The position numbers were made by a program, and so were the translations under genes. 64,000 nucleotides of DNA from an uncultured bacterium. GTDB lineage: Bacteria; Krumholzibacteriota; Krumholzibacteriia; WVZY01. This document shows, piece by piece, positions 471 through 56,432 of the stretch. Under the pieces are notes generated by a model that saw only the letters and a list, made by a program, of their open reading frames with translations, was not told the origin of the DNA and searched no databases. The stretch is taken from NCBI GenBank assembly GCA_965372355.1, contig CBDVBZ010000003.1, forward strand, positions 26,517 to 90,516, in the 5' to 3' direction. The first letter of the stretch is position 1, and each line of letters begins with the position of its first letter.

Positions 471-1739
471 GTGAGTGCCACTGTTCTCGCCGGTTTGATT
501 TTCCTGGTGACGTACGCGGCGATTGTCGCCTTCAAGCAATACAAGAGCCAGATCCTGTGGGGTGGTGTCGCAGCCGCGTTGGCCGCAGGGCTCATTCATA
601 CACCCGATCTTCTTTTCGATGTCAACTGGAACGTGATGGGGATCTTCGCGGGCACGTTGATCCTGTCGGAGTACTTTGTCCTGTCCCGGGTGCCGGATGC
701 CATCTCGACATGGCTTATTCGACGGACGAACACGGTCGGATCGGCCTATCTGCTCGTCTGCATATTTGCCTCGGTTCTGTCTGTCTTTATCGAGAACGTG
801 GCAACCGTCCTGATCGTTGGACCTATCATGATCGGTCTATCCAGAAAGATCGGCATCTCGCCGGTTCCAGGAATGATCGGCATCGCGATATCCTCGAATC
901 TTCAGGGAACGGCCACGCTGATCGGTGACCCGCCGAGCATGATCCTCGCCAACTATATGCAGATGAACTTCAATGATTTCTTTGTATATCAGGGCAAACC
1001 GGGGATCTTCTTTGCCGTTCAGTTTGCTGCCGTTGGTTCGATGCTGTTCCTGTATTTCGCTTACAAGAAATACAAGAACCCCATCTCGTTCGAGGGCACG
1101 GTCAAGATCCGAAGCCTCGTGCCTTTGGTCTTTCTAATAGTGATGGTTCTGGCGCTCTCGCTCGCCGTTCTCGTCGACCCGGGTTTCAAATGGTTTGGAG
1201 GAGCGTCGTGCATGGTGCTGGCCGGGCTTTGCATTGTTTTTTCACGGTTCGCGAAGGAGAAGGAGCACGAGTGGGTCCTGAGACACTATGACATCGAAAC
1301 GACCGCATTTCTCGTGGGGATATTTATCATCGTCGGTATGCTCGAACATCAGGGGGTCATCCATGCCATCGCGGACTTCCTGGCTCACAACATAGGAGAC
1401 AACCCACTCATCGCCTTCAGTGTCGTCGTGTGGGCATCGGTGTTGTTCAGCGCATTCATCGACAACGTGCCCTATCTTACCGCGATGATTCCCGTCGTGC
1501 AGCTGCTCTCTGACTCACTTGGGATAAACGTCGAGCTGCTCGTGTTCGGTCTGCTGATCGGTGCCTCCCTCGGGGGCAACATCACACCGATTGGCGCCGC
1601 CGCCAACATCGTGGCGGTCGGCACTCTCAAAAAGCACGACATCCAGGTCTCGTTCATGGATTTTGTCCGGATCGGCCTGCCGTTTACGATCATAGCGACG
1701 TTGCTTGGGTCCATCTTTATTTATCTGGTGTGGAAGTGA
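471..1739 (+). CDS. ArsB/NhaD/SLC13-family ion transporter permease
   Basis: Many hydrophobic segments; twin motifs SVFIENVAT...SNLQGTATLIGDPPS and SAFIDNVP...GGNITPIGAAAN. Confidence 0.85.
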   Translation: MSATVLAGLIFLVTYAAIVAFKQYKSQILWGGVAAALAAGLIHTPDLLFDVNWNVMGIFAGTLILSEYFVLSRVPDAISTWLIRRTNTVGSAYLLVCIFASVLSVFIENVATVLIVGPIMIGLSRKIGISPVPGMIGIAISSNLQGTATLIGDPPSMILANYMQMNFNDFFVYQGKPGIFFAVQFAAVGSMLFLYFAYKKYKNPISFEGTVKIRSLVPLVFLIVMVLALSLAVLVDPGFKWFGGASCMVLAGLCIVFSRFAKEKEHEWVLRHYDIETTAFLVGIFIIVGMLEHQGVIHAIADFLAHNIGDNPLIAFSVVVWASVLFSAFIDNVPYLTAMIPVVQLLSDSLGINVELLVFGLLIGASLGGNITPIGAAANIVAVGTLKKHDIQVSFMDFVRIGLPFTIIATLLGSIFIYLVWK

Positions 1740-3505
1740 GGTCGCTCGTGAGGTTTTCCCCAGAGCGCCGTTGTTGTCTGGTCGTGATGTTGTTGCTGAC
1801 GACGGCCCTGGTCTGCTCGTGCAGCGATGATTCGTCGAGCCCGACCCAGCCGCCCGCCGACGGCTCGGTTGTGTGGCACGTCCAGCGCACGTCGCAAACG
1901 CATCAGGCGGTGTGGGGGGCGAACGGCGCCGACGTCTTCGTCGTCGGAAACACGGCGCCGATTCTGAACTTCGATGGCACCGGCTGGCGCGCCACGACCG
2001 TTGGCAGCTTACCCGTCCTGACCGATGTGTGGGGGTTTTCCTCGAACAACGTGTTTACGGTGGGGGAGTTCGGCACGATCCTCCACCACGACGGGTCGGG
2101 CTGGACATCGATGGAATCCGGTACAACACAGTTTCTTTTTGGTGTGTGGGGTAGTCCTCCGTCCGATGTGATTGCCGTCGGATCGTTTGGGACGATTCTT
2201 CGTTTCGGCGGGTCCGGATGGAGCGAGATGATCAGCGGGACCACGGAACTGCTGCTGGGGGTGTGGGCGGCCTCGCCGAACGATGTAATTGTTGTGGGGA
2301 CGAATGGCACGCGGCTCCGCTTCGACGGACTCAGCTGGAGTCCGATGCCGGGTCTGGTGACGGAGACGTTGTCGGCGGTCTGGGGTACTTCGGCTAGCAA
2401 TGTGTATGCGGTAGGCGATGGCGGGAGCATTCAACGATACAACGGTTTGGCGTGGAATCCCGTGTCGAGCGGCACGACGCAGCAGCTTATGAGTGTTTGG
2501 GGTAGTGCCGCGGACGATATCTACGCTGTGGGAGACTCGGGCACCGTCGTGCACTACAATGGATCGAGTTGGCAACCCGACAGCAGCGGAACAACGATGG
2601 ACCTGCTCGGCGTCCGCGGCACCTCGGCCGCGGATGTCATCGCCGTGGGTGCAACCGGAACGATGATCCGATTCGATGGCTCGGTCTGGCAGCCTGCGAT
2701 CAGCAGCGGTCCAGCGGGGTTCATTCTCGATATGTGGGGCGAATCGGACACACTTGTCATTGCCGTCGGTGAAGCCGGTTCCATTCTCCGCTACGACGGC
2801 CGGTTGTGGGTGCCGGCAGCCAGCGGGACCGCTGACCATCTGTGGGGTGTTTGGGGTGAGACGAGAAGCGACGTTTTTGCCGTTGGATCATCCGGTACGA
2901 TCCTTCATTTTGATGGCTCGGCGTGGAATCCGATGACGAGCGGCACGAGCCAGCAGCTCATGAGCGTTTGGGGAAACACGGGCCGCGACGTCTTTGCCGT
3001 CGGCGAGTCGGGAACGATCCGGCACTACAACGGGGTGGAGTGGAGCGCGATGCAGAGTGGCACCAGCGAGCGGCTTTTTGGGGTGTGGGGGAGCGGTCCA
3101 TCCAATGTGTTTGCCGTCGGCGAGTCGGGGACAATCCGGCACTACGATGGCGCGAGTTGGAGCCCGTCGGGCAGTGGGATCTCGTTCGCGTTGTTATCGG
3201 TCTGGGGAAGCGCCCCCAACGACGTTTTTGCAGTCGGGGCGGGTGGTAAGATCATCCACTACGACGGCGCGAGTTGGGTCGAGATGAACAGCGGGACGCA
3301 GCGCAGTCTCTGGGATGTTTGGGGTGGTGATCCCGGCCAGGTCTTCGCGGTCGGGGACGGTGGGACCATACAGCGGTTCGACGGTTCAACATGGCGGACA
3401 ACATTGAGCGGTACCGCGCTATCGCTACGCGCCGTGTGGGCGGTTCCCGATCGGGCATTCTCGGGAGGCGCGAGCGGTATCATCGTCGGCGCCGCCAGTC
3501 CGTAG
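1736..3505 (+). CDS. Lipoprotein of 14 ~39-aa VWG..D(V)FAVG..G.I.HYDG..W repeats (probable double 7-blade beta-propeller)
   Basis: Lipobox-like LVCSC; 14 countable repeats; GTG at 1736 overlaps the permease TGA (start uncertain, 1730-1748). Confidence 0.8.
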   Translation: MRSLVRFSPERRCCLVVMLLLTTALVCSCSDDSSSPTQPPADGSVVWHVQRTSQTHQAVWGANGADVFVVGNTAPILNFDGTGWRATTVGSLPVLTDVWGFSSNNVFTVGEFGTILHHDGSGWTSMESGTTQFLFGVWGSPPSDVIAVGSFGTILRFGGSGWSEMISGTTELLLGVWAASPNDVIVVGTNGTRLRFDGLSWSPMPGLVTETLSAVWGTSASNVYAVGDGGSIQRYNGLAWNPVSSGTTQQLMSVWGSAADDIYAVGDSGTVVHYNGSSWQPDSSGTTMDLLGVRGTSAADVIAVGATGTMIRFDGSVWQPAISSGPAGFILDMWGESDTLVIAVGEAGSILRYDGRLWVPAASGTADHLWGVWGETRSDVFAVGSSGTILHFDGSAWNPMTSGTSQQLMSVWGNTGRDVFAVGESGTIRHYNGVEWSAMQSGTSERLFGVWGSGPSNVFAVGESGTIRHYDGASWSPSGSGISFALLSVWGSAPNDVFAVGAGGKIIHYDGASWVEMNSGTQRSLWDVWGGDPGQVFAVGDGGTIQRFDGSTWRTTLSGTALSLRAVWAVPDRAFSGGASGIIVGAASP

Positions 3506-3804
3506 TCTTCGACCCCCCTCCGCTGCTCAACGGTCATTCCGCCGTGCAATATCGGCCGCCAGACCTGTGAGAAGCACATGTGTACACCCTTCCTCCTGGC
3601 CGGCTCTTCCGATGCAACTTGATAACAGATTGGAAGTAATAGAGTTACGCGACGCTTTGGGATTGCCGATCCCCGCTTGATTCCCGCCCGGTGTTGTCTC
3701 GAAACAGGCAAGCATCTTGCAGCGTTGCCCATCGACCCGGGCGGTCTCGCCGAGTCAGCAGAGGAGAGGACAAGGAACTCAGTGCATTGCAGCGGAGGAT
3801 CGGC

Positions 3805-4794
3805 TTGAAACACGCTCTGGTTTTGACATTGGCGGTGATCCTGGTCGTCGCGGCGGCGCCGCACGCCAACCCCGATACCGTTCAGACATGCAAGGCATGC
3901 GGCGGGGACATCAGCGGGCACTGCTTCGAAACGAAGGGCAACTTCTATCACCCACACCATTTCATATGCGCATACTGCGCGGCTCCCATCACGGGCCAGT
4001 ACACGACATACCGATCCGAGAACTATCACAACGACTGCTTCAAGGATCATATCGCGCGGCGATGCACGCTGTGTCGGCAGCCGATCGAAGGTGAGTACAT
4101 CGTTGACTACTGGGGAAACGCCTATCACAAGCGACACAGTAATGAAGTGCCGACCTGCGATTTCTGCGACCGCTTCCTTTCAGCCGAAACCCTGGAGGGG
4201 GGTGTCCGGTTCAGCGACGGTCGTTCGCTGTGCGGCATCTGTCACCGCTCTGCGGTCAAGAAACTTGGCCAGGCGAGGGCACTGATGAACCAGGTGGCTG
4301 CCCAGATGCGTCGTATCGGGATGGGCTTCGATACAGTCGATCTTCGGCTTCATTTGATCGGGCTAAGAAAAATGCAGGAGATCGCCAACTTCCGCTCTCA
4401 CGATCTCAGGGGATTCACCGACTACCACGAGGAACGAAACCTGTTCGGACGGACCCGCAAGCGTCAGATCGATGTCTACCTTCTCTTCGGAATGCCGAAG
4501 GTAGAAATGATCGGCACCATGGCGCACGAGCTGACCCACGTCTGGCAGTTCCTGAACGGTCGTCTGAATTCGGATCCCGCTCTGTCCGAGGGGAGCTGCA
4601 ACTTCGTATCCTATTGGATCTTGAAGCAGATGACCCCCGGCAGGGAGGCGGATTTCATCATCGAAAGCATGTTGCGCGACGACGACTTGATCTACGGCGA
4701 AGGGTTTCGCCGTGTCAAACGGTACGTCGAGCGCAACGGGATCTCAGGCTTGCTCACCCTCCTCTCGGAACAAGACCAACGGTTACCGGACTAG
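3805..4794 (+). CDS. LIM-domain / DA1-type zinc metallopeptidase with N-terminal hydrophobic signal
   Basis: TTG at 3805 with GGAGGA RBS; LIM pattern CKAC-x-HPHH-x-CAYC-x-HNDC, second LIM-like unit, AHELTH, EGSCN, IYGEGFR. Confidence 0.85.
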   Translation: MKHALVLTLAVILVVAAAPHANPDTVQTCKACGGDISGHCFETKGNFYHPHHFICAYCAAPITGQYTTYRSENYHNDCFKDHIARRCTLCRQPIEGEYIVDYWGNAYHKRHSNEVPTCDFCDRFLSAETLEGGVRFSDGRSLCGICHRSAVKKLGQARALMNQVAAQMRRIGMGFDTVDLRLHLIGLRKMQEIANFRSHDLRGFTDYHEERNLFGRTRKRQIDVYLLFGMPKVEMIGTMAHELTHVWQFLNGRLNSDPALSEGSCNFVSYWILKQMTPGREADFIIESMLRDDDLIYGEGFRRVKRYVERNGISGLLTLLSEQDQRLPD

Positions 4795-4809
4795 TTGTCT
4801 CGGCAGGCC

Positions 4810-4905
4810 GGCTGCGGGTCCTGCCTGCCCCCGGGAGGGGGTCGTCGATGACCCCACACGTGCTCGCAAAGCTCCGCTCTTGCGGGACGACGTCACCCCG
4901 CAGCC
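4810..4905 (-). repeat. Structured intergenic repeat, copy A (reverse orientation to B-D)
   Basis: 9-bp terminal IR GGCTGCGGG/CCCGCAGCC; near-identical to reverse complement of 10684-10782. Confidence 0.85.
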
Positions 4906-5091
4906 TACGCTGCGCTCGCTCCCCTCAGACGGTGCCAGAGAGTTGGGCACGGCGCGCGTTCCGCTGCTGCTCTGCCGTTCCGCAACTTCTTGTGAAATAA
5001 TAGAATAAACACTGTGGTCGTGGCTGGAGCGGTTTTTGCAGCAGGCGGGAGGATGACTCCAATTCTGCCACCGTCACAGAGTGAGGCGCCA

Positions 5092-6303
5092 ATGAATACC
5101 AATGCCCAACGTGTCATGGGTCGACTCGGAACCGCAATTCTCGTTCTGTTCCTCCTGGTCCCCGCCTGTTCGGGGCCCTCGGAGGTCGCCGAGGGAGTGA
5201 TTACCGTGGGCGCGCCGGAACCGCGCAATGCCACGACGGTTCAGGAACTATCGCAGCGCCTTATCTGGAGGACGACCGGAGCGACAGGGGATCTCGCCGG
5301 TTACGATGTCCATTTCGGCACGACCCCGGACCCTCCGCTGGTTGAAGAGAACTACCAGAAGATGTACTACGACACCGGAGACCTCATCGTCTCGAAGACC
5401 TATTTCTGGCGTGTCGTCGCGAAGAACACCGACGGCAACTCATTCCCCGGGGATGTCTGGGTCTTTTCGACGCGTGATGGTGTGTGGGGCGAGGAAAACA
5501 GCGGGACGACCCAGAACCTGTCCGCCGTATGGGCGATTACAGGGGATGATGCCTTCGCCGTGGGAACCGGTGGGGCGATTCAGCGATGGGATGGCACGTC
5601 GTGGACCGGGATGAACAGCGGGACTCCGCTCAATCTCTTTGGGGTATGGGCGTTGTCCGCGACCGAGGCCTACGCGGTTGGCAGCAGCGGCACAATCCGG
5701 CACTGGGACGGCGCCCGGTGGGATATCGAGTCCACCACCGCAGTGTCGCATTTTCGCGCCGTATGGGGCAGTGCCGCCGATGATGTGTTCGTTGTCGGCG
5801 ACAACGGCGCCGCCTGGCACTACGATGGTGATGATTGGGATCGCGAGATCACGGGGACCAGCCGACCGCTTCTCGCCATCCACGGGACATCTGAAGACAA
5901 CGTCTTCGCCGTGGGTACGTTTGGCACCGTTTTGAGATACGACGGTGAGGATTGGAGCGAGATGAACAGCGGGACATCGGCAAACCTCGCCGGTGTCTGG
6001 TGTATCTCTCCAAACAACGTCTTCGCCTGCGGCGCTTTCGGTGCGGTTATTCGATACGACGGAAACAGTTGGACTGAAATGGTTACGAATTCCGCCAACG
6101 GGTTGAACGCCATCTGGGGCAGCGCTCCGACAAACGTGCTCGCCGTGGGGCAGTTCGGATCCATCCTCCGTTTCAACGGAACCGAGTGGTACAGTATGGT
6201 CAGCAATACCGCCGTACCGCTCACCGGCGTGTCAGGAGCGGCACGGGGCGATGTCCATTCCTGCCGCCAGACCACGTCCAAAATCATGCGTTACCGTCCC
6301 TGA
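5092..6303 (+). CDS. Lipoprotein with Fn3-like domain and 7 VWG-type beta-propeller repeats
   Basis: ATG 5092 with GAGG RBS; lipobox VPAC; YDVHFG...YFWRVVAKN segment; 7 repeats paralogous to 1736-3505. Confidence 0.8.
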   Translation: MNTNAQRVMGRLGTAILVLFLLVPACSGPSEVAEGVITVGAPEPRNATTVQELSQRLIWRTTGATGDLAGYDVHFGTTPDPPLVEENYQKMYYDTGDLIVSKTYFWRVVAKNTDGNSFPGDVWVFSTRDGVWGEENSGTTQNLSAVWAITGDDAFAVGTGGAIQRWDGTSWTGMNSGTPLNLFGVWALSATEAYAVGSSGTIRHWDGARWDIESTTAVSHFRAVWGSAADDVFVVGDNGAAWHYDGDDWDREITGTSRPLLAIHGTSEDNVFAVGTFGTVLRYDGEDWSEMNSGTSANLAGVWCISPNNVFACGAFGAVIRYDGNSWTEMVTNSANGLNAIWGSAPTNVLAVGQFGSILRFNGTEWYSMVSNTAVPLTGVSGAARGDVHSCRQTTSKIMRYRP

Positions 6304-6364
6304 CCGGCGCCCCTCTCCAATTGCATACTTGATGGCCCAAACGAGGTTCGAGCATGACGAACCG

Positions 6365-6796
6365 TCACGCTTCCGTGCGTCCGTGCAGGGTCACGATGAG
6401 CCGTCTGGCCCGCGGCCGGTTGCGGTGTTCACAGAGATACACGCCCTGCCACGTGCCAAGATTAAGTCGACCCTCCGTGATCGGGAGCACGATGCTACTT
6501 CCCAGAAGTGACGCCTTGATGTGTGCGGGCATGTCATCCGGGCCTTCGGTCGTATGGATGTAGTACGGGGTGTTCTCGGGCACCATCTTGCTGAAATGTG
6601 ACTCCATATCGGTGCGCACCGAGGGATCGGCGTTCTCATTGACACTCAGCGAGGCGGAGGAGTGCAGGATAAAGACATGCGCGAGACCGACTCTGTACTC
6701 CCGGATCTCCGGGACCTGCCCCTCGATCTCGGATGTCACCAGATGAAAACCGCGTTTCTTCGGTGACAGCGTGATCTCTTTCTGAAACCAGTCCAT
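6365..6796 (-). CDS. yjbQ: YjbQ/UPF0047 family (secondary thiamine-phosphate synthase-like)
   Basis: HSSASLSVNENADP, EGPDDMPAHIK, LGTWQGVYLCEHR. Confidence 0.92.
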   Translation of the reverse strand: MDWFQKEITLSPKKRGFHLVTSEIEGQVPEIREYRVGLAHVFILHSSASLSVNENADPSVRTDMESHFSKMVPENTPYYIHTTEGPDDMPAHIKASLLGSSIVLPITEGRLNLGTWQGVYLCEHRNRPRARRLIVTLHGRTEA

Positions 6797-6826
6797 GTTT
6801 TCCTCCGTTTCGATCGACGCCCGCGT

Positions 6827-7660
6827 TCAGCTGGCACTCCCACGGCCAGCGAAGGCCACGATATGCCCCCCCCAGTATGTCAGCCGGTAGACGCCGTTGG
6901 ACATCCGGTCGATCAGGCTCTTGTTGCCCCACTGCTTTGCGGGAGACGTGATGCTGATGACCGTCAGTCCGGCCGAGCGGAGCGTGCGTTCCAGTGTCGC
7001 AGGGGTGAAGAACCAGAAATGATGTCCCGTTGAGTAGTGTTTCCACGGGTTTTTCTTTAACCCCAGCCGGCTCTGTGCGTTCTTCATACGCGAAGAGAGG
7101 CTTGCCACATTGGGCACCTCGATCCGTACGATGCCCCGCGGGCTCAACAGCTCGGCGATCCGTTCGAGCGTCGTGCGTGGGTTCTTTACATGCTCGAGCA
7201 CATGATTGAGGACGATGGCATCATAGGTGCCTTCGGAGAGGGGGATGTCCTCGATGACCCCTTGATGCACGGTGATCTCGGAATGGTCTCGAACATGCCG
7301 GACCATGGCCGATGAGATCTCGGTTCCCTCCGCTTCCCACCCCCGGCCCGCGGCTGTTTTGAGGAGGGTCCCTTCCCCGGCGCCAATATCCAGGAGCTTC
7401 CCCTTACGCTCCAGCACCGATTCGATTTCCGTCAAGAGCTCGGCGAATATCCTCTCGCGCCTCTCGCTCGTGGCGATGGCCGGTGAGAAGTACTCGTGGG
7501 AATAGATGTCCTCATCCGCTTCCTGATACGCCGGGTACTCCTCGGCGAACTGGAGCTTGCAGCTGCGGCAGGCAACCACGCGCACGCCCGGCCGGAGTGC
7601 AAAGACGAGCCGGACCGGAGCGCTCGGACAATTGGGGCATGTCTGTTTCTCGGTCATCAT
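6827..7660 (-). CDS. Class I SAM-dependent methyltransferase with N-terminal Zn ribbon
   Basis: CPNC..CRSC; LLDIGAGEG motif I; NHVLEHV; EVPN; glycan O-methyltransferase-like. Confidence 0.88.
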   Translation of the reverse strand: MMTEKQTCPNCPSAPVRLVFALRPGVRVVACRSCKLQFAEEYPAYQEADEDIYSHEYFSPAIATSERRERIFAELLTEIESVLERKGKLLDIGAGEGTLLKTAAGRGWEAEGTEISSAMVRHVRDHSEITVHQGVIEDIPLSEGTYDAIVLNHVLEHVKNPRTTLERIAELLSPRGIVRIEVPNVASLSSRMKNAQSRLGLKKNPWKHYSTGHHFWFFTPATLERTLRSAGLTVISITSPAKQWGNKSLIDRMSNGVYRLTYWGGHIVAFAGRGSAS

Positions 7661-7812
7661 ATGTGGTGTGGACTGAAGTGATTCGTGTGATCATCGTAGC
7701 AGGGACGGTGACGCAAGTCAAAGTGCCGCCAGTGGATTCGACGTCCGCGGGTTGAGGCGGCACGCTCGTCAAGCGGCGTTCCGGCGATCGATCCACCCGT
7801 CTTTGCCGGTAT

Positions 7813-8049
7813 GTGCTATCGTTGATCAAACGACGACGCCCGCGCGTCTTCGCGACGGGCCTCAGCAAGAGACTCACGGGGCACTTCACGGCACCGAGTG
7901 GTACGATCTGCCGTTCCGGGCGAACCATCGTGTTCGACGCCGAGGGTGGGCGCACGTACCGGGTCGAGGGCGTCGAGTGGGATGACACGATCTATATCTG
8001 GATCGAAGACACATACACCCGCGAGATCGTGGGTGGCGAGAAGCCCTGA
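7813..8049 (+). CDS. Small hypothetical protein or gene remnant
   Basis: GC3-rich codons in the last two thirds; no clear RBS or family. Confidence 0.35.
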   Translation: MLSLIKRRRPRVFATGLSKRLTGHFTAPSGTICRSGRTIVFDAEGGRTYRVEGVEWDDTIYIWIEDTYTREIVGGEKP

Positions 8050-8180
8050 AAGCGAGCTACTGAGCGCATCCTGTATCAGTTGGGAAGTTCTTAATCACTC
8101 AACCGGCAACTTTTGACCTGCGGTAGCGTATTTCAATCAGAGAGGGCATTCACTATCCAGCGGACACGAGGAGGCAGGAA

Positions 8181-8531
8181 GTGAAGCTGTCAAAGAGGGA
8201 AATGGAAGGAGCGGTCATTGTCGACGTCGAAGGAAAGTTTGTCGGCAGCCTGGAGAACACGGATATGTTCCACGGTTTCTTCAAAGAGCTCCTGAACGAA
8301 GGCTGGAAGAAGGTTGTGGTCAACCTGGACGGGTCGCCCTGGGCGAACAGCCAGGGGATCGGCATGCTGATCGGCGCGCACACGAGCTTTGCGAACGCCG
8401 GTGGAGAGCTGGTTCTGGCCCGCGTGACCGAACGCATTTACGATATTCTCACCGTGACGCGTCTTCTGCTCATCTTCAAGACTTTCGAGACCGAGGATGA
8501 AGCGCTCGCCCACCTGTCGGCGAGCGACTAG
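8181..8531 (+). CDS. STAS-domain anti-sigma factor antagonist
   Basis: GAGGAGG RBS; VVVNLDGSPWANSQGIGML, LTVTRLLLIF..FETEDEA. Confidence 0.88.
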   Translation: MKLSKREMEGAVIVDVEGKFVGSLENTDMFHGFFKELLNEGWKKVVVNLDGSPWANSQGIGMLIGAHTSFANAGGELVLARVTERIYDILTVTRLLLIFKTFETEDEALAHLSASD

Positions 8532-8703
8532 CACATCGCCGGACACTCGAGGTCGCTCCGCCGCCACGGTCACAACTTCCGGTTATCTGACGAGTAGCCG
8601 AGTGGTTACCCATTGACCGCCGCCGGGGTGGGCGGCCAGGTCAACTGGAGATCACGCCGTCGGCGCACATCGATGGCTCCACGCGCCCAAACCCCGAAAC
8701 TTA

Positions 8704-8732
8704 TTGACCTTACTTATACTATAACCTAGTGT
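8704..8732 (+). promoter_or_regulatory. Putative sigma70 promoter of the polysaccharide cluster
   Basis: TTGACC-N17-TAGTGT in an AT-rich patch upstream of 8768. Confidence 0.45.
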
Positions 8733-8767
8733 AATACAGTGGGTATCGAGCGTTCGAAAGGAGCCGT

Positions 8768-9718
8768 ATGAAGGTGCTGATTACGGGAATCACCGGTTTT
8801 GCGGGAAGCCATCTCGCCGACTACTGCCTTGCCCGGGGTGGTGTGGACGTCTACGGGATTATCCGGTGGCGGAGCAGGACCGAGAACATCGAACATTTTC
8901 GGGACAAGGTCTCGCTGCTGGAATGCGACCTTCGAGACGCGACCTCGACGCGCACTGTGATCGAGCAAATCAGGCCCGACTATATTTTTCACCTCGCGGC
9001 CCAGAGTTATGTGCCCACGAGCTGGCATGCACCCACCGAGAGCCTCACGACCAATGTGATCGGCCAACTCAATGTATTTGAGGCGGTTCGCAAGCTCGAT
9101 CTCGATTGCCGGATTCAGATTGCCGGTTCGAGCGAGGAGTACGGGATGGTGAACGAGGACGAGCTCCCAATCAATGAGAGCAACCCGCTTCGCCCGCTGA
9201 GCCCGTACGGTGTCAGCAAGGTCGGTCAGGATCTTCTGGGGTACCAGTACTTCATGAGCTATCAAATGGCGATCGTACGCACTCGCGGCTTCAACCATAC
9301 CGGGCCGCGCCGTCATCCGGTCTTTGTCGTTTCGGATTTCGCCAAACAGATCGTCGATATCGAGAACGGCCGCAAGGATCCAGTCATGTACGTCGGCAAC
9401 CTGGAGGCGACGCGCGACTTCACCGATGTCCGGGATATGGTGGTCGCATATTTTCTTGCTCTCGAGAAGGGCAGACCCGGGGAGGTCTATAACATTTGCT
9501 CCGAAAGCCACTGGACGATTCAAGAAGTCCTCGACAAGCTGCTCTCTCTGAGCGAGGTGAAGATCGAGGTCAAGCAGGATCCAGGGCGGTTGCGTCCTTC
9601 CGACGTACCGCGGCTTCTGGGCGACTGCTCGAAGTTCAAGAAGGACACGGGGTGGCAGCCCACGATACCGTTTGAAACCACTCTCAATGATATGCTCGCC
9701 TATTGGAGGCAAAGGTAG
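8768..9718 (+). CDS. GDP-mannose 4,6-dehydratase / RMD-like extended SDR
   Basis: GITGFAG, HLAAQSYV, SSEEYG, YGVSK, TRGFNHTGP, GNLEATRDFTDVRD. Confidence 0.85.
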   Translation: MKVLITGITGFAGSHLADYCLARGGVDVYGIIRWRSRTENIEHFRDKVSLLECDLRDATSTRTVIEQIRPDYIFHLAAQSYVPTSWHAPTESLTTNVIGQLNVFEAVRKLDLDCRIQIAGSSEEYGMVNEDELPINESNPLRPLSPYGVSKVGQDLLGYQYFMSYQMAIVRTRGFNHTGPRRHPVFVVSDFAKQIVDIENGRKDPVMYVGNLEATRDFTDVRDMVVAYFLALEKGRPGEVYNICSESHWTIQEVLDKLLSLSEVKIEVKQDPGRLRPSDVPRLLGDCSKFKKDTGWQPTIPFETTLNDMLAYWRQR

Positions 9719-9727
9719 GCGCGCACG

Positions 9728-10672
9728 GTGAAACGCGTACTGGTAACGGGATCCAGCGGTTTTGTCGGGCAGGTCCTCTCCGAAGTGATGGGGGTGGACG
9801 GGCTCGAGGTGTTGGGTGTGGATCGCCGGGAGAGCACTGCCGGCCGGTTCGCTCGCACATACGCCGTCGATTTGTGCGATCAGCAGGCGGTGGAGACGTT
9901 GTTGGGGGATGTGCGGCCGGATTACATCGTTCATCTCGCGGCGCAGTCCAGTGCCAGCCGCTCGTTCATGGAGCCCCACGCGACGATCCGCACCAACGTG
10001 CTCCCCGTTCTTCATATGCTCGAGTATCTGAGAACCAACACGGGCACGTGCACACGCCTGCTGGCCGTCGGATCGGCCGAGGTGTATGGTCCGGTTGATG
10101 ACGCGTCGCTGCCGCTCGTTGAGTCCATGCTGCCAAATCCCCGCAGCCCCTATGCCCTCAGCAAGTTGCTACAGGAACAGTGTTGCAGTCAGTACGCTTC
10201 GCTGTACGACGTCGATCTGGTGATGACTCGGAGTTTCAACCACACCGGCGCCGGTCAGACGGACACATTCGTGCTGTCGAGCTTCGCCAGGCAGATCACC
10301 GAGATCAAGGCCGGGACCAGAGATGCTACGGTGCATGTTGGAAACGTCGACGTGCGGAGGGATTTCACGGATGTGCGGGATGTCTGTCGCGCCTACACGC
10401 TGCTGCTCGAGAAGGGACGGCGGGGGAAGATCTACAACGTCTGTTCGGGCGTGTCACACAGCCTGCGGGAACTGCTCGAGAAGCTCGCCGAGATCGCGGG
10501 CATCGGGATAAAAATCGAAGTGGACAAAAGCCGTCTCCGTGCGGTCGATATCGCGGAACTCTACGGAGACAACAACCGTCTCGCGACCGACACGGGTTGG
10601 CAACCGGAGATACCGGTCGAAGACACATTGGCCGCACTCTTGCATTACTGGTCGCAGAACCTCGAACAGTGA
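9728..10672 (+). CDS. Second GDP-sugar SDR (RMD-like reductase), paralogue of upstream gene
   Basis: GSSGFVG, HLAAQS, SAEVYG, YALSK, RSFNHTG, RRDFTDVRD. Confidence 0.8.
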   Translation: MKRVLVTGSSGFVGQVLSEVMGVDGLEVLGVDRRESTAGRFARTYAVDLCDQQAVETLLGDVRPDYIVHLAAQSSASRSFMEPHATIRTNVLPVLHMLEYLRTNTGTCTRLLAVGSAEVYGPVDDASLPLVESMLPNPRSPYALSKLLQEQCCSQYASLYDVDLVMTRSFNHTGAGQTDTFVLSSFARQITEIKAGTRDATVHVGNVDVRRDFTDVRDVCRAYTLLLEKGRRGKIYNVCSGVSHSLRELLEKLAEIAGIGIKIEVDKSRLRAVDIAELYGDNNRLATDTGWQPEIPVEDTLAALLHYWSQNLEQ

Positions 10673-10683
10673 GTCGGGCACAA

Positions 10684-10782
10684 GCCGCGGGTGGTGTCGG
10701 TGTCCCCTCCGCAAGAGCGCAGCTTGCGAGCACTTGTGGGGTAGTCGACGACCCCCTCCCGGGGGCAGGCAGGACCCGTGGC
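10684..10782 (+). repeat. Structured intergenic repeat, copy B
   Basis: Terminal stem GCCGCGGGT/ACCCGTGGC (one G.U); core CCGCAAGAGCGCAGC...GACCCCCTCCCGGGGGCAGGCAGGAC. Confidence 0.85.
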
Positions 10783-10846
10783 CACGTGAGAAGCTGAGGC
10801 GACGAGGACAACATCGTCCCGGCGCCATGAACCGATGGGAGGGTAG

Positions 10847-12157
10847 ATGATAAGAATCTGTATGATAGGAACGGGGTATGTCGGTCTCGTCAGCGGATCG
10901 TGTCTGGCGGACTTCGGCAACATGGTCCGTTGTATCGATGTCGACGCCGATCGGATCAAGTTGCTCCAGAACGGCCATATCCCCATCTACGAGCCCGGGC
11001 TGGGTGATATGGTCGCGCGCAATGTGGCGAGCGGCCGGCTTTTCTTTAGCACCGATCTACAGGAGGCCGTCGAGCACTCAGAGGTGGTTTTCATTGCGGT
11101 CGGCACGCCCGCGCTGCCCGATGGTTCGACAGATCTGTCTTTCGTTTTCGAGGCCGCGAAGTCGATCGCGAAACTTCTCAACGGAAAGAAAGTCGTTGTC
11201 CAGAAGAGCACGGTCCCGGTGGGCGCGACGCGGCGGGTCGGCGAGCTCCTCAAAAAACATGGTCCCAAGGGGGTGGATGTCGAGATCGTGGCCAACCCCG
11301 AGTTTCTGCGGGAAGGGTCCGCAGTCGGGGACTTCCTGCGGCCGAACCGGGTGATCATCGGTGTGGAGGACGAGTGGGCACGCGAGGTCATGAGGAACGT
11401 CTACAGACCGCTCTATCTGATCGAGACGCCGATCGTCCTGACAACCCTGGAGACCGCCGAGCTGATCAAGTACGCGAGCAATGCGTACCTTGCCACAAAA
11501 ATCTCGTTCGTAAACGAAATGGCCGCGATAGCAGAGGCGGTTGACGCGAACATCGACGATGTGGTCAGGGGGATGGGTCTGGACGGAAGGATTGGACCCA
11601 AGTTTCTGCACGCGGGTGTTGGCTTCGGGGGCTCGTGTCTCCCCAAGGATGTATTGTCTCTCGTGCACCAGTCGAACACCGGTGGGGTCAAACCCGAAAT
11701 CCTCGAAGCGGTGCTGAGAGTAAACGCCCGTCTGGCGGGAGTGGCAGTGCGGAAGGTGAAGGAACAGCTCGGTGAACTCGATGGCAAGACGATCGGACTG
11801 CTCGGTCTTTCGTTCAAGCCGAACACCGACGACCTGCGTGAAGCCCCGTCCATTCGGATTGCCCATCAGCTGTTGGACGCGAAGGCGATGGTACGGGTCT
11901 TTGATCCGGCCGCGATGAGCCACTTCAAGGAAATCACTGGATTGGACGTGACATATTGCAAAGACGCGTACGACGCCGCACAGGGATGCAACGCGCTGGT
12001 TCTTGTCACGGAGTGGAACGAATTCAGAGTGCTCGATTTCGACCGTCTCAGGGAAATCGTGAAAGAGCCGGTATTCGTCGATTGCCGCAACGTCTACAAA
12101 CCTGATCATGTCACCACACACGGTTTTCGCTACAGCTCCTTTGGAAGAGGGAGATGA
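10847..12157 (+). CDS. ugd: UDP-glucose/GDP-mannose 6-dehydrogenase
   Basis: GTGYVG, NPEFLREG, KYASNAYLATKISF, GFGGSCLPKD, FKPNTDD. Confidence 0.92.
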   Translation: MIRICMIGTGYVGLVSGSCLADFGNMVRCIDVDADRIKLLQNGHIPIYEPGLGDMVARNVASGRLFFSTDLQEAVEHSEVVFIAVGTPALPDGSTDLSFVFEAAKSIAKLLNGKKVVVQKSTVPVGATRRVGELLKKHGPKGVDVEIVANPEFLREGSAVGDFLRPNRVIIGVEDEWAREVMRNVYRPLYLIETPIVLTTLETAELIKYASNAYLATKISFVNEMAAIAEAVDANIDDVVRGMGLDGRIGPKFLHAGVGFGGSCLPKDVLSLVHQSNTGGVKPEILEAVLRVNARLAGVAVRKVKEQLGELDGKTIGLLGLSFKPNTDDLREAPSIRIAHQLLDAKAMVRVFDPAAMSHFKEITGLDVTYCKDAYDAAQGCNALVLVTEWNEFRVLDFDRLREIVKEPVFVDCRNVYKPDHVTTHGFRYSSFGRGR

Positions 12158-12160
12158 TAC

Positions 12161-13198
12161 ATGCCGTTCTTCAAGTCGATCCTCGTGACCGGTGGCGCCG
12201 GTTTTATCGGATCGAACTTCGTGCGACATATCATGGCCCGCCATGCCGATTGCTCGGTCACCGTTCTCGATGCCCTGACATATGCGGGGAATGTCGAGAA
12301 CCTGGCGCTGGTGATCGGTGACGATCGTTTGAGGTTTATTGAAGGGTCCGTCACGGAGCCGGATCTCGTCCGACAAGCGATGGGCGGATGTGAGGCGGTT
12401 TTCAACTTTGCCGCGGAAACACACGTCGATCGCTCGATTCAGGAGGCGGGCTCGTTTATCCGCACCGACGTCCTGGGGACGTACACGCTTCTTCGCTCGG
12501 CGACCGATGCCGGTATCGAGCGGTTTGTGCAGATATCGACGGACGAGGTCTACGGGAGCGCCGTCGACGAGGACTTTACCGAGGCCTCACCGCTTAAGCC
12601 CGGGAATCCCTACTCGGCGAGCAAGAGCGGTGGCGATTTGATGTGCCAGGCGTTTGTCAACACATTCGAGTTGCCTGTGGTCATCACGAGGAGCTCCAAT
12701 AATTTTGGCCCGTACCAGCACATCGAGAAGTTCATGTCGCTATTTATCACGAACACTATCGAGGGTAAGGATCTGCCGCTGTACGGCGACGGGTTGCACC
12801 GCCGCGACTGGATCTACGTCGAGGATAACTGCGCTGCGATCGAGTTGATCGCTACGGAGGGAAAGGTTGGCGACGTGTACAACATCGCGGCGGGGGAGAG
12901 CCGGACCAACCTCGAGGTGGCCGAGAAGATCGTAGACATTCTCGACGCGCCCAGATCGAGGATTGTCTTTATTGAAGATCGAAAAGGTCACGACCGGGCC
13001 TACGAGATGGATAGCTCGAAGCTCCGACAACTGGGTTGGAAACCCGCCCACCGCTTCGAAGAAGCGCTCGAAGAGACCGTGGTTTGGTACCGGGACAACG
13101 AGGAGTGGTGGAGGCGTGTGAAGTCGGGCGCTTTCCGCGAGTACTACAAACAGCACTATGGCGAGCGAATCAAGCGGGGGAAAAAGCATGGCGTATAA
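12161..13198 (+). CDS. rfbB: dTDP-glucose 4,6-dehydratase
   Basis: GGAGFIGSNF, FAAETHVDRSI, STDEVYG, PYSASK, DRKGHDRAY. Confidence 0.92.
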   Translation: MPFFKSILVTGGAGFIGSNFVRHIMARHADCSVTVLDALTYAGNVENLALVIGDDRLRFIEGSVTEPDLVRQAMGGCEAVFNFAAETHVDRSIQEAGSFIRTDVLGTYTLLRSATDAGIERFVQISTDEVYGSAVDEDFTEASPLKPGNPYSASKSGGDLMCQAFVNTFELPVVITRSSNNFGPYQHIEKFMSLFITNTIEGKDLPLYGDGLHRRDWIYVEDNCAAIELIATEGKVGDVYNIAAGESRTNLEVAEKIVDILDAPRSRIVFIEDRKGHDRAYEMDSSKLRQLGWKPAHRFEEALEETVVWYRDNEEWWRRVKSGAFREYYKQHYGERIKRGKKHGV

Positions 13199-14279
13199 GG
13201 TTCTGGCCGTGGTCGGAGCGCGGCCCAACTACATGAAGATGGCGCCGATCTGGCGCGCGCTCGAGAAACAGGAGCATGTGACAAAACGTCTGGTTCACAC
13301 TGGCCAGCACTACGATCACAACATGTCCAAGATCTTTTTTGACGAGCTCGAGCTTCCCAAGCCGGATGTCTATCTTGGCGTGGGGTCGGGGTCTCACGGC
13401 GAACAGACCGCGAAGGTCATGGTCGAGATAGAGAAGGTCCTGATGGAAGAGCGTCCACAGCTTCTCGTTGTGGTGGGTGACGTGAACTCGACGATGGCCG
13501 GTGCGCTCGTCGCCGCTAAACTCGGAGTGCCGATCGCGCACGTCGAAGCGGGGTTGCGGAGTCGCGACCGCACGATGCCCGAAGAGATCAATCGAATGGT
13601 CACCGACATTCTGGCGGATCTGCTGTTTACAACGGAAGCCAGTGCCGAGCACAACCTGACAGCGGAGGGCATTGACAGAGAAAAGATCCATTTCGTCGGC
13701 AACGTGATGATCGACAGCCTCATGTTTTACCGGCCCATGGCCGAACGGTCGGCGATTCTCGACGATCTGGGGTTGAAGCGCCAGGGGTACGGGCTGATCA
13801 CGCTGCATCGTCCCTCGAACGTGGACGATCCCGCGACGTTCGAGCCGATCCTTCGAGTGCTCAAGGAGTTGGGTAAGGAGTGCCCTCTCGTATTTCCGGC
13901 GCACCCGCGAACCCGAAAGGTGATCGAAAACAGCGGGATAAAGATCGAGGGTGGAGAGATCACGATGATCGATCCGGTGGGATACCTCGATTTCGTCAAG
14001 CTGATGCTGCACTCGAGAATCGTCCTCACCGATTCCGGCGGTATACAGGAAGAAACGACGGTGCTCGGGATACCCTGTCTGACGATCCGCGAGAACACCG
14101 AACGGCCGATCACGATCGACATAGGTACCAACCGGCTGGTTGGCACAAACCCCGATCGGATACTGACAGAAGGTCGTAATGCGCTTCAGGCTGGCACGTC
14201 GTCGGGGAAGATACCGGAGCTTTGGGACGGGAAGGCAGCCGAACGAATTGTGAAGGTTATCGATGAGTTCTGCCTATGA
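13188..14279 (+). CDS. wecB: UDP-N-acetylglucosamine 2-epimerase (non-hydrolysing)
   Basis: GARPNYMK, HTGQHYD, HVEAGLRS, PEEINR, TDSGGIQEE. Confidence 0.93.
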   Translation: MAYKVLAVVGARPNYMKMAPIWRALEKQEHVTKRLVHTGQHYDHNMSKIFFDELELPKPDVYLGVGSGSHGEQTAKVMVEIEKVLMEERPQLLVVVGDVNSTMAGALVAAKLGVPIAHVEAGLRSRDRTMPEEINRMVTDILADLLFTTEASAEHNLTAEGIDREKIHFVGNVMIDSLMFYRPMAERSAILDDLGLKRQGYGLITLHRPSNVDDPATFEPILRVLKELGKECPLVFPAHPRTRKVIENSGIKIEGGEITMIDPVGYLDFVKLMLHSRIVLTDSGGIQEETTVLGIPCLTIRENTERPITIDIGTNRLVGTNPDRILTEGRNALQAGTSSGKIPELWDGKAAERIVKVIDEFCL

Positions 14280-15784
14280 AGTACGAGGGATCCAGTTGGT
14301 CGTTTGAGGACAGCTCGCTGGGGCGGAGTTTTCTGTGGGGCCTGGCGATCACCGCTCTACCGGCTGCATCCGGTTTTGTCGTCTCCTGGGTTATCGCGCG
14401 ATGGGCCGGTCCCGGTGTCATGGGGACCGTTTCGTGGGTCATGTCGTATGCCACGGCGGTTCTCATCGTCGGTAAATTCGGGCTGGACCTCGCGGCCTCC
14501 CGCCTGGCAAGCGAGTATGGTGTCGCCTCCCCGGGGACACTCCGCCCGTTGTTCGCGAAGGCTCTCGGTCTTCGGGCCGCGTTCACGCTCCCCGTCGCAC
14601 TCCTGACACTCGTTTTTGCCCCGCAAATCGCGCAGTTTTTCCCCGATTCTGATCTGACGAACGCGATCCGGGTCGGGGCGCTGATCGTCGTCTGTGCAAG
14701 TGTCTACGAATTCAACGAGAACTTCCTGATCGGTCTGAATCGTCTGGCAACCGTTTACAGGATCCGCGCGGTACATCTGGTCTCGAGAGTCGCGGCGACG
14801 GCCGTGCTCGTTTTTCTCGGGTTTGGCGCCGTTGCCGTTCTCGGCGGATACTGTGGGGCGTGGCTCCTCGCGATCGCCGTCTACGCGGTGCTGCTCCATC
14901 GATACCTGCCCGCTTCTGACCCTTCGAGCGACCGCGCCGATGTCGGGAGGTTGCTCACGCTCAGTGTGGCCCTGGCGGTGAGCAGCGCTTCTGTGACGAT
15001 CTATTCTCACATGGACAGACTCCTGCTGGGGTATTTCTCCGGGATGGAGGAGCTTGGCCAGTACGCCGTGGCCCGGAACATCACGGAGGTGTCTCTCTTT
15101 CCCGTCTTCGCCATGGTGATGATGCTTCGACCGGCGCTGGCCGCCCGGTTTTCCACAGGCCGCGTGTCCGAGTGCGCCGATATCATCCGGTATTCCATTC
15201 GGTTCTGTTTTGTGATCGGCGTCCTGTTTTCGGCGATTTTCGTTGCACTCGGAGCCGATCTGGTCACGTTCGTCTATTCGGATGCCTTCCTGCCGGCCGG
15301 TCGGCTCATGGTCTTCTTCGTCGGGGTCGTGCTTGCCCGATCCATCGGAGCCGTGCTCCTGCCCGCCCTGATCGCAGCCGATATGACACGTGTATATGCT
15401 TATTTAACAGCAGGATCGGCCGTTCTTCATTTTTCTCTCAATCTCTTCCTCATCCCCCGTTACCAGTCCCGGGGGGCGATAGTCACCACAATCATCTCCT
15501 ACGGCCTCCTCCTCGCCGTCGGGTTGGGTGTCATGCTGGCCAAGTATCGAATTCCCATCCGCTTGGCCGCATTCTCCATCGCTGCTCGCACGATTCTTGC
15601 TGGATGCATCGCAACCGCCGTCGTCTGGCTGTTGGCAGATCGAGCCGAACCGCTTTCGTGGGTGGCACTGGTGTGGGCGGTGCTCCTTCTGGGGCTGTAT
15701 CTGTTTTTGATTTATGTGCTTCGCGTGGTGACTTTTAGCGATCTTAGTAAACTGTTCAGTAACCTAAGTAAACAAAAGAGATAA
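14276..15784 (+). CDS. Wzx-type oligosaccharide flippase (MOP superfamily)
   Basis: ~12-14 TM segments, MDRLLLGYF...GQYAVA motif, location in sugar cluster. Confidence 0.85.
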   Translation: MKYEGSSWSFEDSSLGRSFLWGLAITALPAASGFVVSWVIARWAGPGVMGTVSWVMSYATAVLIVGKFGLDLAASRLASEYGVASPGTLRPLFAKALGLRAAFTLPVALLTLVFAPQIAQFFPDSDLTNAIRVGALIVVCASVYEFNENFLIGLNRLATVYRIRAVHLVSRVAATAVLVFLGFGAVAVLGGYCGAWLLAIAVYAVLLHRYLPASDPSSDRADVGRLLTLSVALAVSSASVTIYSHMDRLLLGYFSGMEELGQYAVARNITEVSLFPVFAMVMMLRPALAARFSTGRVSECADIIRYSIRFCFVIGVLFSAIFVALGADLVTFVYSDAFLPAGRLMVFFVGVVLARSIGAVLLPALIAADMTRVYAYLTAGSAVLHFSLNLFLIPRYQSRGAIVTTIISYGLLLAVGLGVMLAKYRIPIRLAAFSIAARTILAGCIATAVVWLLADRAEPLSWVALVWAVLLLGLYLFLIYVLRVVTFSDLSKLFSNLSKQKR

Positions 15785-15796
15785 GCGCATTTGCGC

Positions 15797-15825
15797 TTGA
15801 CTTTCTCAGCTTTCTGGGGTAATCT
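15797..15825 (+). promoter_or_regulatory. sigma70 promoter of the WecA-like gene
   Basis: TTGACT-N17-TAATCT, then GGAGG RBS before TTG 15885. Confidence 0.65.
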
Positions 15826-15884
15826 CACGCGAGGAAGGTATGGCACCAGCGTTCCCCCAATGAGCACCCCCCACTGGAGGAATC

Positions 15885-16964
15885 TTGTTTTTGCTCCACG
15901 CATCGATGGCATTTATCATCTCTTTCGGCATTGTCGCGGTCGCGACTCCGTTTATCCGAAGACTCGCCCTGCGCTGGAAGCTCGGCCAAAAACCCAATGG
16001 CCGCAAAGTATGCTCGCATACGATTCCCCACGTCGGCGGAATCGGAATAGCCGTTGGGACGTTGGTTAGCATTTCACTGGCCGGTCTGCTGTTCGACGGG
16101 GGCGAGAGCGGGACTCTCGGGTTACTCGGACGCATGTTGCTACCGGTCGTTCTGATTGTTGCCCTGGGCGTCGCCGACGACACGAAGTCGCTGCGGGCGG
16201 GTCAGAAGTTGACGATCCAGGTTTTTTCTGCAGTCATCCTCGTGTTTTCGGGGATTCAGTTGTTCACAGGCTTCCGACTCCTGGATCAAACTTCGCTTTT
16301 CGCGCTCCTGTTTACGTGCTTCTACCTGGTGGGGATTTCCAGTTCGGTTAATCTGATCGATGGCCTCGATGGTTTGGCCGGTGGTCTATCGGCGATCTCG
16401 GCGGGCACGTTTGGCGTGCTCGCGATACTCGTCGGCGCACAACCGCTTCTGTTTGTGTCGCTCGCCGTTGCGGGCGCGTGCATCGGTTTCTTGATATACA
16501 ACTTTCCCCCCGGCAAGATTTACATGGGTGACACGGGCAGTATGTTTCTGGGTCTCGTCCTCGGGGTCATTGCGTGCTATTTCACAATGCTGCAACCCAC
16601 TATCAATACATTTGTTGGCGTGGGGCTGATCCTGATCATCCCGATGGCGGATTCCTGGTTGGCGATCGCAAGACGACTGGCGCTCCACACGCCTGTGTTT
16701 CAGGCAGACTCGCTTCACATGCACCACGTGTTGTTGCTGCTTGGTTTGTCTCCGCGGCAGACGCTGGCGATTCTCTATTCCATGCAAGCGGTTATGGCGA
16801 TTCTCGGGGTCCTCACGGTGAAGGGTCTGATGATACCGATGATCCTGGGTTTCGTTCTTGTCGGCCTGATCTTCATCTCCTTCATCCGCATCATGGTGGC
16901 GTCGAAGGAGCGGAGTGAGACGGTGTCGGCCAAACTTGCCTCGGTTCCTTCTCTCGAAAAATAG
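15885..16964 (+). CDS. WecA/TagO (MraY-family) polyprenyl-phosphate HexNAc-1-P transferase
   Basis: IPHVGGIGI, GVADDTK, VNLIDGLDGLAGG, NFPPGKIYMGDTGS, LHMHHVL. Confidence 0.9.
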   Translation: MFLLHASMAFIISFGIVAVATPFIRRLALRWKLGQKPNGRKVCSHTIPHVGGIGIAVGTLVSISLAGLLFDGGESGTLGLLGRMLLPVVLIVALGVADDTKSLRAGQKLTIQVFSAVILVFSGIQLFTGFRLLDQTSLFALLFTCFYLVGISSSVNLIDGLDGLAGGLSAISAGTFGVLAILVGAQPLLFVSLAVAGACIGFLIYNFPPGKIYMGDTGSMFLGLVLGVIACYFTMLQPTINTFVGVGLILIIPMADSWLAIARRLALHTPVFQADSLHMHHVLLLLGLSPRQTLAILYSMQAVMAILGVLTVKGLMIPMILGFVLVGLIFISFIRIMVASKERSETVSAKLASVPSLEK

Positions 16965-17091
16965 TTTCCACCGCGCGAGAAGTTTCATGCTAGACTTAGT
17001 CCGTTGACGATTGGGCTGTGTGTGTGCTACGTTTTGGATTCGTTCCTTCTTTCTTTTTCTAACAGACGACTCATTCTTTGGGAGTAAAGTT

Positions 17092-18015: not shown

Positions 18016-18051
18016 TCCCCTTTCCGATTATCCCAGGAGAGCAGAAGGACA

Positions 18052-19320: not shown

Positions 19321-19412
19321 GCGGCGAGGAGCATGGTGAGCGCCTTGCGAGCGAGGCTCTTTCTTGGGGCCCTCGCTCAACTTCGCTCCCTTCAAGGACA
19401 GGCCGGCTAGCC

Positions 19413-19525
19413 GCGTCTGCGGGGGGTGGCGCCGTCCCGCAAGAGCGCAGCCTTGTGGGCTGTTCGGCGACCCCCTCCGGGGACCCTCTTTCAGAGGACA
19501 GGCAGGCAGGACTCGACGCAGACGC
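19413..19525 (+). repeat. Structured intergenic repeat, copy C
   Basis: Different but perfect terminal stem GCGTCTGCG/CGCAGACGC around the same core; preceded by CCCTTCAAGGACAGGC. Confidence 0.8.
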
Positions 19526-19589
19526 GATGGATTCCCGTGAAGGGATCCTGCGGAAGACCTCACTCGCTCGGCGCCGACGACTGACTAAA

Positions 19590-56415: not shown

Positions 56416-56432
56416 GCCTGTCCTGGAAGGGC
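56416..56432 (-). repeat. GCCCTTCCAGGACAGGC motif copy in a divergent intergenic region
   Basis: Exact reverse complement of 41704-41720; identical to 47595-47611. Confidence 0.75.

Follow-up and report, generated by a model that had tools for sequence, protein, structure and literature searches.

The question raised by this locus is what kind of element is represented by four stretches of approximately 100 nt that lie between protein-coding genes in a 64,000-nt segment of bacterial DNA (hereafter the window), and how they came to occupy these positions. The initial annotation had described them as a dispersed repeat whose terminal arms pair in every copy, and direct reading bore out both the positions of the four copies and the pairing of their arms (Table 1), the positions being recovered also by an nhmmer profile and by a covariance model. 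Copies A to D were also recovered independently by repeat finding in the window, and have in common a core of the form GTCCCGCAAGAGCGCAGC ... GACCCCCTCCnGGGG ... CAGGCAGGAC. The nhmmer profile built from the four copies matched them with E-values of 1e-17 to 1e-27 and had no further match anywhere in the window. Similarly, a covariance model built from six copies (A to D, plus one copy each from contigs L085 and L086), and run with filters off, assigned scores of 73-117 bits to A to D, the next-best place in the window scoring 16 bits. Exactly four copies are present in the window.

Table 1. Locations of the four repeat copies, and of sites matching the motif CCTGTCCTGGAAGGG, with the arms and neighbouring genes of each repeat copy. 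Strands are + (forward) and - (reverse); all neighbouring genes are on the + strand, and the gap is the distance from the upstream stop codon to the element.
Feature	Position	Strand	Arm positions	Arm sequences	Type	Covariance model score (bits)	Upstream gene	Gap (nt)	Downstream gene
Copy A	4810-4905	-	4897-4905 and 4810-4818	GGCTGCGGG/CCCGCAGCC	full	109.9	DA1-like/LIM peptidase (3691-4794)	15	
Copy B	10684-10782	+	10684-10692 and 10774-10782	GCCGCGGGT/ACCCGTGGC (one G.T)	full	117	GDP-mannose-dehydratase-like epimerase (9728-10672)	11	UDP-glucose dehydrogenase (10847-12157)
Copy C	19413-19525	+	19413-19421 and 19517-19525	GCGTCTGCG/CGCAGACGC		78.7	seryl-tRNA synthetase (18052-19320)	92	histidine kinase (start ~19591)
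Copy D	47562-47672	+	47562-47571 and 47663-47672	GGTCGTGGGT/ACCCGCGGCC (two T.G)		73	ABC transporter (45752-47560)	1	NTP_transf_5 gene (47693-48853; begins 20 nt past the end of D)
CCTGTCCTGGAAGGG site	19388-19402	-							
CCTGTCCTGGAAGGG site	41705-41719	-							
CCTGTCCTGGAAGGG site	41741-41755	+							
CCTGTCCTGGAAGGG site (within copy D)	47596-47610	+							
CCTGTCCTGGAAGGG site	56417-56431	+							
CCTGTCCTGGAAGGG site	61867-61881	-							
CCTGTCCTGGAAGGG site (contig L085)	4376-4392								

The gap of approximately 60 bits between the copies and the background, together with the 93% identity of A and B over 71 nt and the presence of copies in other samples and species, makes it scarcely credible that the repeat is not one entity at all, being instead a chance likeness of GC-rich hairpins, an assembly artefact or a series of integron attC sites. 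What can be said for chance likeness is that the genome is GC-rich, that A, B and D, when folded at full length (z = -0.6 to -0.8), are no more stable than shuffled GC-rich sequence, and that a pattern match of 24 nt in a MAG unrelated to the host (L001) did prove to be due to chance. Three further, independent assemblies from the same population, L002, L083 and L092, contain copies identical or nearly identical to those of the window, and the repeat family is thus no assembly artefact. The attC interpretation was rejected: the copies have syntenic housekeeping flanks, are spaced 6-28 kb apart, and lack both an accompanying integrase and GTTRRRY/RYYYAAC core sites.

As the initial annotation had it, all of the copies lie just past a stop codon and between co-directional genes, with gaps that range from 1 to 92 nt. 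Five copies (B, C, D and those in L085 and L086) have the sense orientation relative to the upstream gene, and A runs antisense to the genes on either side of it. The GC3-based gene map of the window comprises 53 genes, of which 36 were scanned against Pfam (including those on either side of A to D), most of the others being covered by precomputed Pfam hits in near-identical or syntenic loci. The functions of the window genes so covered are ordinary housekeeping ones and no transposase, RAYT or Y1_Tnp domain was found among them, in agreement with the earlier statement that the window encodes no transposase; transposase and RAYT genes were absent also from the genes called in the related loci that were fetched.

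Alignment of the six copies, together with single-sequence folds, revealed a common layout for this GC-rich, non-coding foldback of some 80-115 nt, namely a closing stem (P1), a tetranucleotide, and second and third stems (P2 and P3), to which a full type adds a further hairpin (P4). P1 comprises 6-10 bp with the consensus GGCYGYGGGT/ACCCGYRGCC, the inverted termini being imperfect and extending to 9-10 bp in A, B, C, D and the L085 copy, and to 6 bp in L086. The tetranucleotide lies directly 5' of the GTCG stem, and is GTGG in B, C, D, the L085 copy and L086, and GTGA in A. P2 has the form GTCG(T)/(A)CGAC, while P3, CCCGCAAG/CTTGTGGG, encloses the loop AGCGCAGC(TTGCGAGCAC), a highly conserved core; the inner palindrome formed by the second and third stems measures 46-65 nt. 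P4, found in the full type only, is a CCCCC-TCCC-GGGGG hairpin followed by CAGGCAGG. Individual copies show variations on this layout. Copy B contains an internal GGTGTC duplication, copy C is without the TTGCGAGCAC segment and has an extra hairpin, CCTCTTTCAGAGG, past the CCCC/GGGG hairpin, and copy D has an internal insertion that contains one of the CCTGTCCTGGAAGGG sites. The 3' hairpin module is present or absent, depending on the copy, and the family is accordingly modular, a feature that the initial annotation overlooked. The truncated type takes the form of a single rod-like foldback whose halves are inverted copies of each other; in the L085 copy and L086 the 5' half aligns with the reverse complement of the 3' half as GGCCGYGGGT..GTCGT..CCCACAAG.

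The closing stem is predicted in the folds of all six known copies, and the truncated copies are significantly stable, with z-scores of -3.9 (L085 10388-10476) and -2.8 (L086). The arms were said to differ in sequence while always pairing. They are indeed non-identical, but the difference was overstated, since the arms prove to be 70-90% identical variants of a single palindromic consensus and can be swapped at little cost in pairing: when 3' arms were exchanged among copies, the mean over all permutations was 48.7 pairs, compared with 52 for the copies' own arms, and 24 of the 720 permutations matched the real arrangement. Standard pairs occupy 90% of cells in the six-copy alignment, as opposed to approximately 40-44% when the partners are slid. 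The proposal that covariation reveals selection on structure receives weak support, in that only 3 of 26 pairs are altered on both sides, a figure equalled by 57 of 500 shuffles. These three pairs are columns 12/140 (T-A, C-G and G-C among the copies), 9/143 (G-C and T-A) and 53/78 (C-G and G-C). The covariation score of 0.187 (vs 0.137) was attained by 10 of 500 shuffles, although with six full copies these covariation statistics are under-powered, and kinship alone may yield such values. Covariation of the closing stem is hence suggestive, not decisive. Compensatory changes have been described as common in the hairpins of REPINs (PMC3116915) and, even if confirmed here, would for that reason not single out the present family.

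The remark that the arm mismatches of B and D are all G.U in the orientation given is correct for the arms, while in P2 the written strand shows C.A mismatches in four copies (B, C, D and L086). Over the whole alignment the non-Watson-Crick cells on the written strand, which are not independent of each other, comprise 15 G.U and 6 A.C, representing a mild bias towards that strand, for which six full copies give an under-powered statistic.

Comparison with relatives indicates how the copies are distributed among loci. Contig L085 derives from a sister species, is syntenic with the window and shares approximately 82% nucleotide identity with it in genes. It carries a copy exactly at the B position (10391-10473), which is truncated and lacks the CCCCCTCCCGGGGGCAGGC module, such that the B locus has the full type in the window and the truncated type in L085. 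At the position of A, on the other hand, L085 has a different palindromic element, with the two genomes aligning up to the respective element boundaries. These alignments show that one locus can bear different element types in sister species. The L086 copy, which sits between convergent genes on a JGI metagenome contig, is of the same truncated type as the L085 copy, as are several loose contig ends. No copy occurs along 21 kb of a more distant syntenic relative, L089, whose seryl-tRNA synthetase shows 87% identity. The epimerase/UDP-glucose dehydrogenase junction (the B site) measures 15 nt in L089 compared with 174 nt in the window, and the synthetase/kinase junction (the C site) measures 23 nt in L089 and 24 nt in the outgroup L003, compared with 270 nt in the window. 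Since the C junction is tight and empty in both L089 and the outgroup, copy C and its accompanying hairpins represent a gain in the lineage of the window; the B site is empty in L089, which is the sole relative compared at that site and has no outgroup with which to polarise the change. The copies are located at gene 3' ends, inside junctions that are tight in the operons of relatives.

Conservation extends to the sequence of the element. Of 77 aligned positions, 68 are identical between copy B and its L085 ortholog, and within the core 40 of 41 match, whereas four-fold degenerate sites in neighbouring genes are 67.5% identical (P ~2e-5 and ~2e-6 for the respective excesses). The most conserved block is the interior, and the termini are the least conserved. 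Paralogs compared across species are as alike (0.89-0.90) as orthologs (0.88). Conservation of the core thus far exceeds that of neutral sites, and it is the sequence itself, not structure alone, that is conserved, a point that the initial annotation overlooked; a structural need that could be satisfied by any hairpin would not explain it. Taken together with the exchange of element types at fixed loci, the conservation points either to a constraint on the sequence or to active copies that continually homogenise or replace the others.

These data bear upon the idea that the repeat is a dedicated cis-acting RNA element, i.e. an operon-internal stabiliser, a processing site or a terminator lacking a U-tract, that has been duplicated to many gene 3' ends. 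The location of all known copies just downstream of a stop codon, the sense orientation of five of the six, the wobble bias towards the written strand, the prediction of stable hairpins and the conservation of the core beyond the neutral rate are each consistent with it. The antisense orientation of A with respect to both neighbours is not, and neither are the C.A mismatches in the second stem, nor the exchange of element types at fixed loci. Moreover, the same operons work without the element in L089 and L003, with junctions of 15-24 nt, and the genes that flank the copies are functionally unrelated. No U-tract follows any copy and a terminator scan was blank at A, B and C, nor is there a match to an Rfam family. 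On balance a dedicated RNA element is considered unlikely. Two narrower candidates were rejected outright: an intrinsic terminator, given that the scan of positions 4000-20000 was blank at A, B and C and that no T runs occur after any 3' arm, and a riboswitch or leader, given that the downstream genes are unrelated and that one copy is reversed.

The host DNA was found in marine-sediment and cold-seep metagenomes, and the nearest public relatives of the seryl-tRNA synthetase and UDP-GlcNAc 2-epimerase encoded in the window are from MAGs labelled Candidatus Latescibacteria or Krumholzibacteria. The host is accordingly an uncultured inhabitant of marine sediment, of the Latescibacteria/Krumholzibacteria type. 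Summed contig word depth was 7-10 for the flanks, approximately 60-100 for A and B, and approximately 317 for the 3' module of D. Expressed relative to the flanks, the depth of the repeat was 6- to 45-fold across the metagenome runs that contained the host, with values of 30- to 45-fold for the D 3' module in run X1. Numerous distinct flanks run off the repeat as loose ends, and 35 contigs were aligned on D in run X1. Word depth and the variety of the loose ends indicate that the family is multi-copy, with at least tens of copy-equivalents, to which depth-based number related organisms in the same samples may contribute. Pairing of arms among the loose contig ends (GGCAGTGGGT with ACCCGCTGC, and CGGCGGGT with ACCCGCCG) is suggestive, these being ends that cannot be assigned to one copy and that were left uncounted. 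Neither empty-site nor excision alleles were detected in the contigs of six metagenome runs, from which rare variants are dropped. The repeats break assemblies of the host at gene junctions, and the family thus explains why such breaks occur there.

Searches further afield returned little. Rfam 15 at gathering thresholds gave no match in the window, and permissive Rfam scans of B and C gave chance-level matches only (E >= 0.7). A pattern scan with the 3' module returned nothing from JGI metagenomes or IMG/VR and a single match among GTDB genomes, sampled at one genome per GTDB species; this is the 24-nt chance match in L001 referred to above, which falls inside a coding region. The equivalent scan with the 5' module returned one real copy (L086) and one chance match from JGI metagenome contigs, one chance match from the same set of GTDB genomes and none from IMG/VR. 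Related loci totalling 1.3 Mb contributed no further copies. When six-frame translations of the element were concatenated and compared with a protein database, nothing matched; candidate selection in that search was probably swamped. To judge from these scans, the family seems to be limited to a narrow clade. Its multi-copy nature, the blank Rfam result, the empty sites in relatives and the lack of any copy in GTDB or IMG/VR sustain the original suggestion of an undescribed dispersed family of the REP/MITE type.

Which of these two types it more closely resembles can be considered in turn. Bacterial MITEs include the Correia elements of Neisseria, ERIC/IRU of enterobacteria and RUP/BOX of Streptococcus pneumoniae. 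Like the present family, these are of approximately 100-150 nt, with terminal inverted repeats, intergenic and co-transcribed positions and either orientation, and may likewise have effects on mRNA stability; BOX, in addition, is modular in composition. The differences are that here there is no target-site duplication, no recognisable parent IS, and that the termini are more variable than the interior. Of the features that define a MITE, then, terminal inverted repeats are present and a target-site duplication is not: none flanks any of the six copies, as judged by direct reading of the flanks. For a classical MITE, that is an internally deleted IS derivative moved by a DDE transposase via terminal inverted repeats of 9-10 bp, the GGCYGYGGGT/ACCCGYRGCC termini, the length of approximately 100 nt, the intergenic location of multiple copies in both orientations and the empty sites in relatives would all be in order. 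The lack of target-site duplications would not, and conservation that is least at the termini and greatest in the interior is the opposite of what is expected of a terminal repeat bound by transposase. A parent insertion sequence is likewise missing from both the window and the loci fetched, and a classical MITE must be deemed decidedly improbable.

A REP has been defined as an imperfect extragenic palindrome of 20-50 nt, present in high copy number, with a conserved tetranucleotide, usually GTAG, at its 5' side, and REPs often occur as inverted pairs (PMC8266576). The REP and REPIN families of Pseudomonas, E. coli and Stenotrophomonas, which are mobilised by RAYTs, share with the present one their GC-rich, extragenic palindromes in many copies, a modular make-up in which related genomes may have different types at one locus, and sequences that are alike across loci and species. 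The GTGG directly 5' of the inner palindrome may be a variant of their conserved tetranucleotide. REPINs resemble the family further in being long foldbacks of two inverted halves, as seen in the truncated copies that fold as a single rod, and perhaps in hairpin variation that is partly compensated. Nonetheless, judged on its sequence the family would satisfy the definition only loosely, with GTGG (or GTGA) in place of the canonical GTAG and an inner palindrome that exceeds the classical 20-50 nt. Differences from REPINs also include the central position of the most conserved block, which is not found at both ends, and the absence of a RAYT from the window and fetched loci.

We conclude that the repeat probably represents a new family of the REP/REPIN/MITE-like kind, restricted to one lineage and made up of small palindromic elements that are non-coding and would be spread by an enzyme acting in trans. 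Copies would both spread and stay alike through recognition of the folded single strand by this enzyme, which would explain why hairpin and core sequence are both conserved; gene conversion between copies would assist in spread or homogenisation. The most plausible candidate would be a Y1 transposase of the RAYT/IS200-like type, with its gene in another part of the genome, but, with no RAYT or transposase in the window or fetched loci, it is one whose existence we purely infer. An inserted copy would be co-transcribed with its neighbours and form a stable stem-loop at the 3' end of the upstream message, which may incidentally buffer that message from degradation or uncouple neighbouring cistrons, acting at most as a generic 3' stem-loop.

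The conservation of the 41-nt core, the placement at gene 3' ends and the exchange of modules at fixed loci could also be accommodated by a more host-integrated system, in which a domesticated Y1 transposase, or else an RNA-binding or RNA-processing protein, reads the core in single-stranded DNA or RNA and the elements serve to punctuate operons. This seems quite unlikely; if true, it would amount to a vertically inherited partnership similar to that of REPINs and RAYTs, and we know of no such partnership having been described in the host phylum. Dispersed structured repeats have on other occasions been tied to transposon-encoded RNA-guided systems, as with HEARO, now recognised as the IscB omega RNA, and the IS605-orfB/TnpB RNAs. 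These resemble the present repeat in being dispersed, structured and non-coding with a conserved core, yet the latter is much shorter at approximately 100 nt, has its copies inside housekeeping operons, has no IscB or TnpB gene beside it in the window and no Rfam match to those families.

If the repeats do constitute a mobile palindromic family, as favoured here, a REP/REPIN-like family would be added to a candidate lineage known from metagenomes only; to our knowledge no such family has been reported from lineages of the Latescibacteria/Krumholzibacteria type. The family also provides a clean case in which inserted palindromes have widened operon junctions of 15-24 nt to 170-270 nt. Should a cognate RAYT or binding protein be found, the picture of vertically inherited REPIN-RAYT systems would extend beyond the lineages studied so far, and the family would offer a natural system in which the effects of inserted hairpins on operon expression could be followed. 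Failing that, it would be a tidy but unexceptional representative of a known class.

Several other repeats occur in the same DNA. The motif CCTGTCCTGGAAGGG is dispersed, with six sites in the window at one mismatch or fewer (Table 1), and eight at three mismatches or fewer compared with approximately two expected. One of its copies is within D and one abuts C, and two inverted copies form a hairpin with a 14-bp stem at approximately 41703-41757, between convergent genes (z = -4.1). The motif resembles the reverse complement of the 3' module of the main family (CCTGCCCCCGGGAGGGGG), and on the strength of this resemblance may be a related module of that family.

A second palindromic family is represented at L085 4340-4444, with a 15-bp closing stem (GGGACGATGTTGTCC/GGACAACATCGTCCC; z = -5.8), where it occupies the site orthologous to that of A. 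In the window its 3' half alone (GGACAACATCGTCCCGGCGCCA) is found at 10806-10830, just downstream of copy B, and a related fragment (CGTCTAAAGGTCAGAG) adjoins the L086 copy (L086 620-680). The spacer that contains copy C is packed with additional hairpins, namely GAGCGAGG...CCTCGCTC past the synthetase stop codon (19321-19412) and GGATTCCCGTGAAGGGATCC past the element (19526-19590). Elsewhere, three tandem 44-nt units (CCATCTCGCCGATCACAAGTGAGTGCCATAAGGCCATGGTGTCG), the second and third with 89% and 61% identity to the first, occupy positions 57423-57554, and span the end of a gene of the RNase_H_2 superfamily (56614-57444) and the spacer before a gene for a DEAD/MZB (MrfA-like) helicase (57595-60081).

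With regard to the genes near copy A, the product of the upstream gene has a LIM domain (E = 1.2e-9) in combination with a DA1-like metallopeptidase domain (E = 6e-12), an architecture best known from plants, and has orthologs on contigs L083, L085 and L089. The forward-strand genes at 1730-3505 and 5014-6303 encode paralogous proteins composed of repeats 39 residues (117 nt) in length that bear a GTIxHYDGxxW-like signature. These proteins had no Pfam match above threshold. A homology search, which also led to the syntenic contig L085, showed that they belong to a broad and widespread family, some members of which carry annotations as BNR/Ycf48-like beta-propellers.
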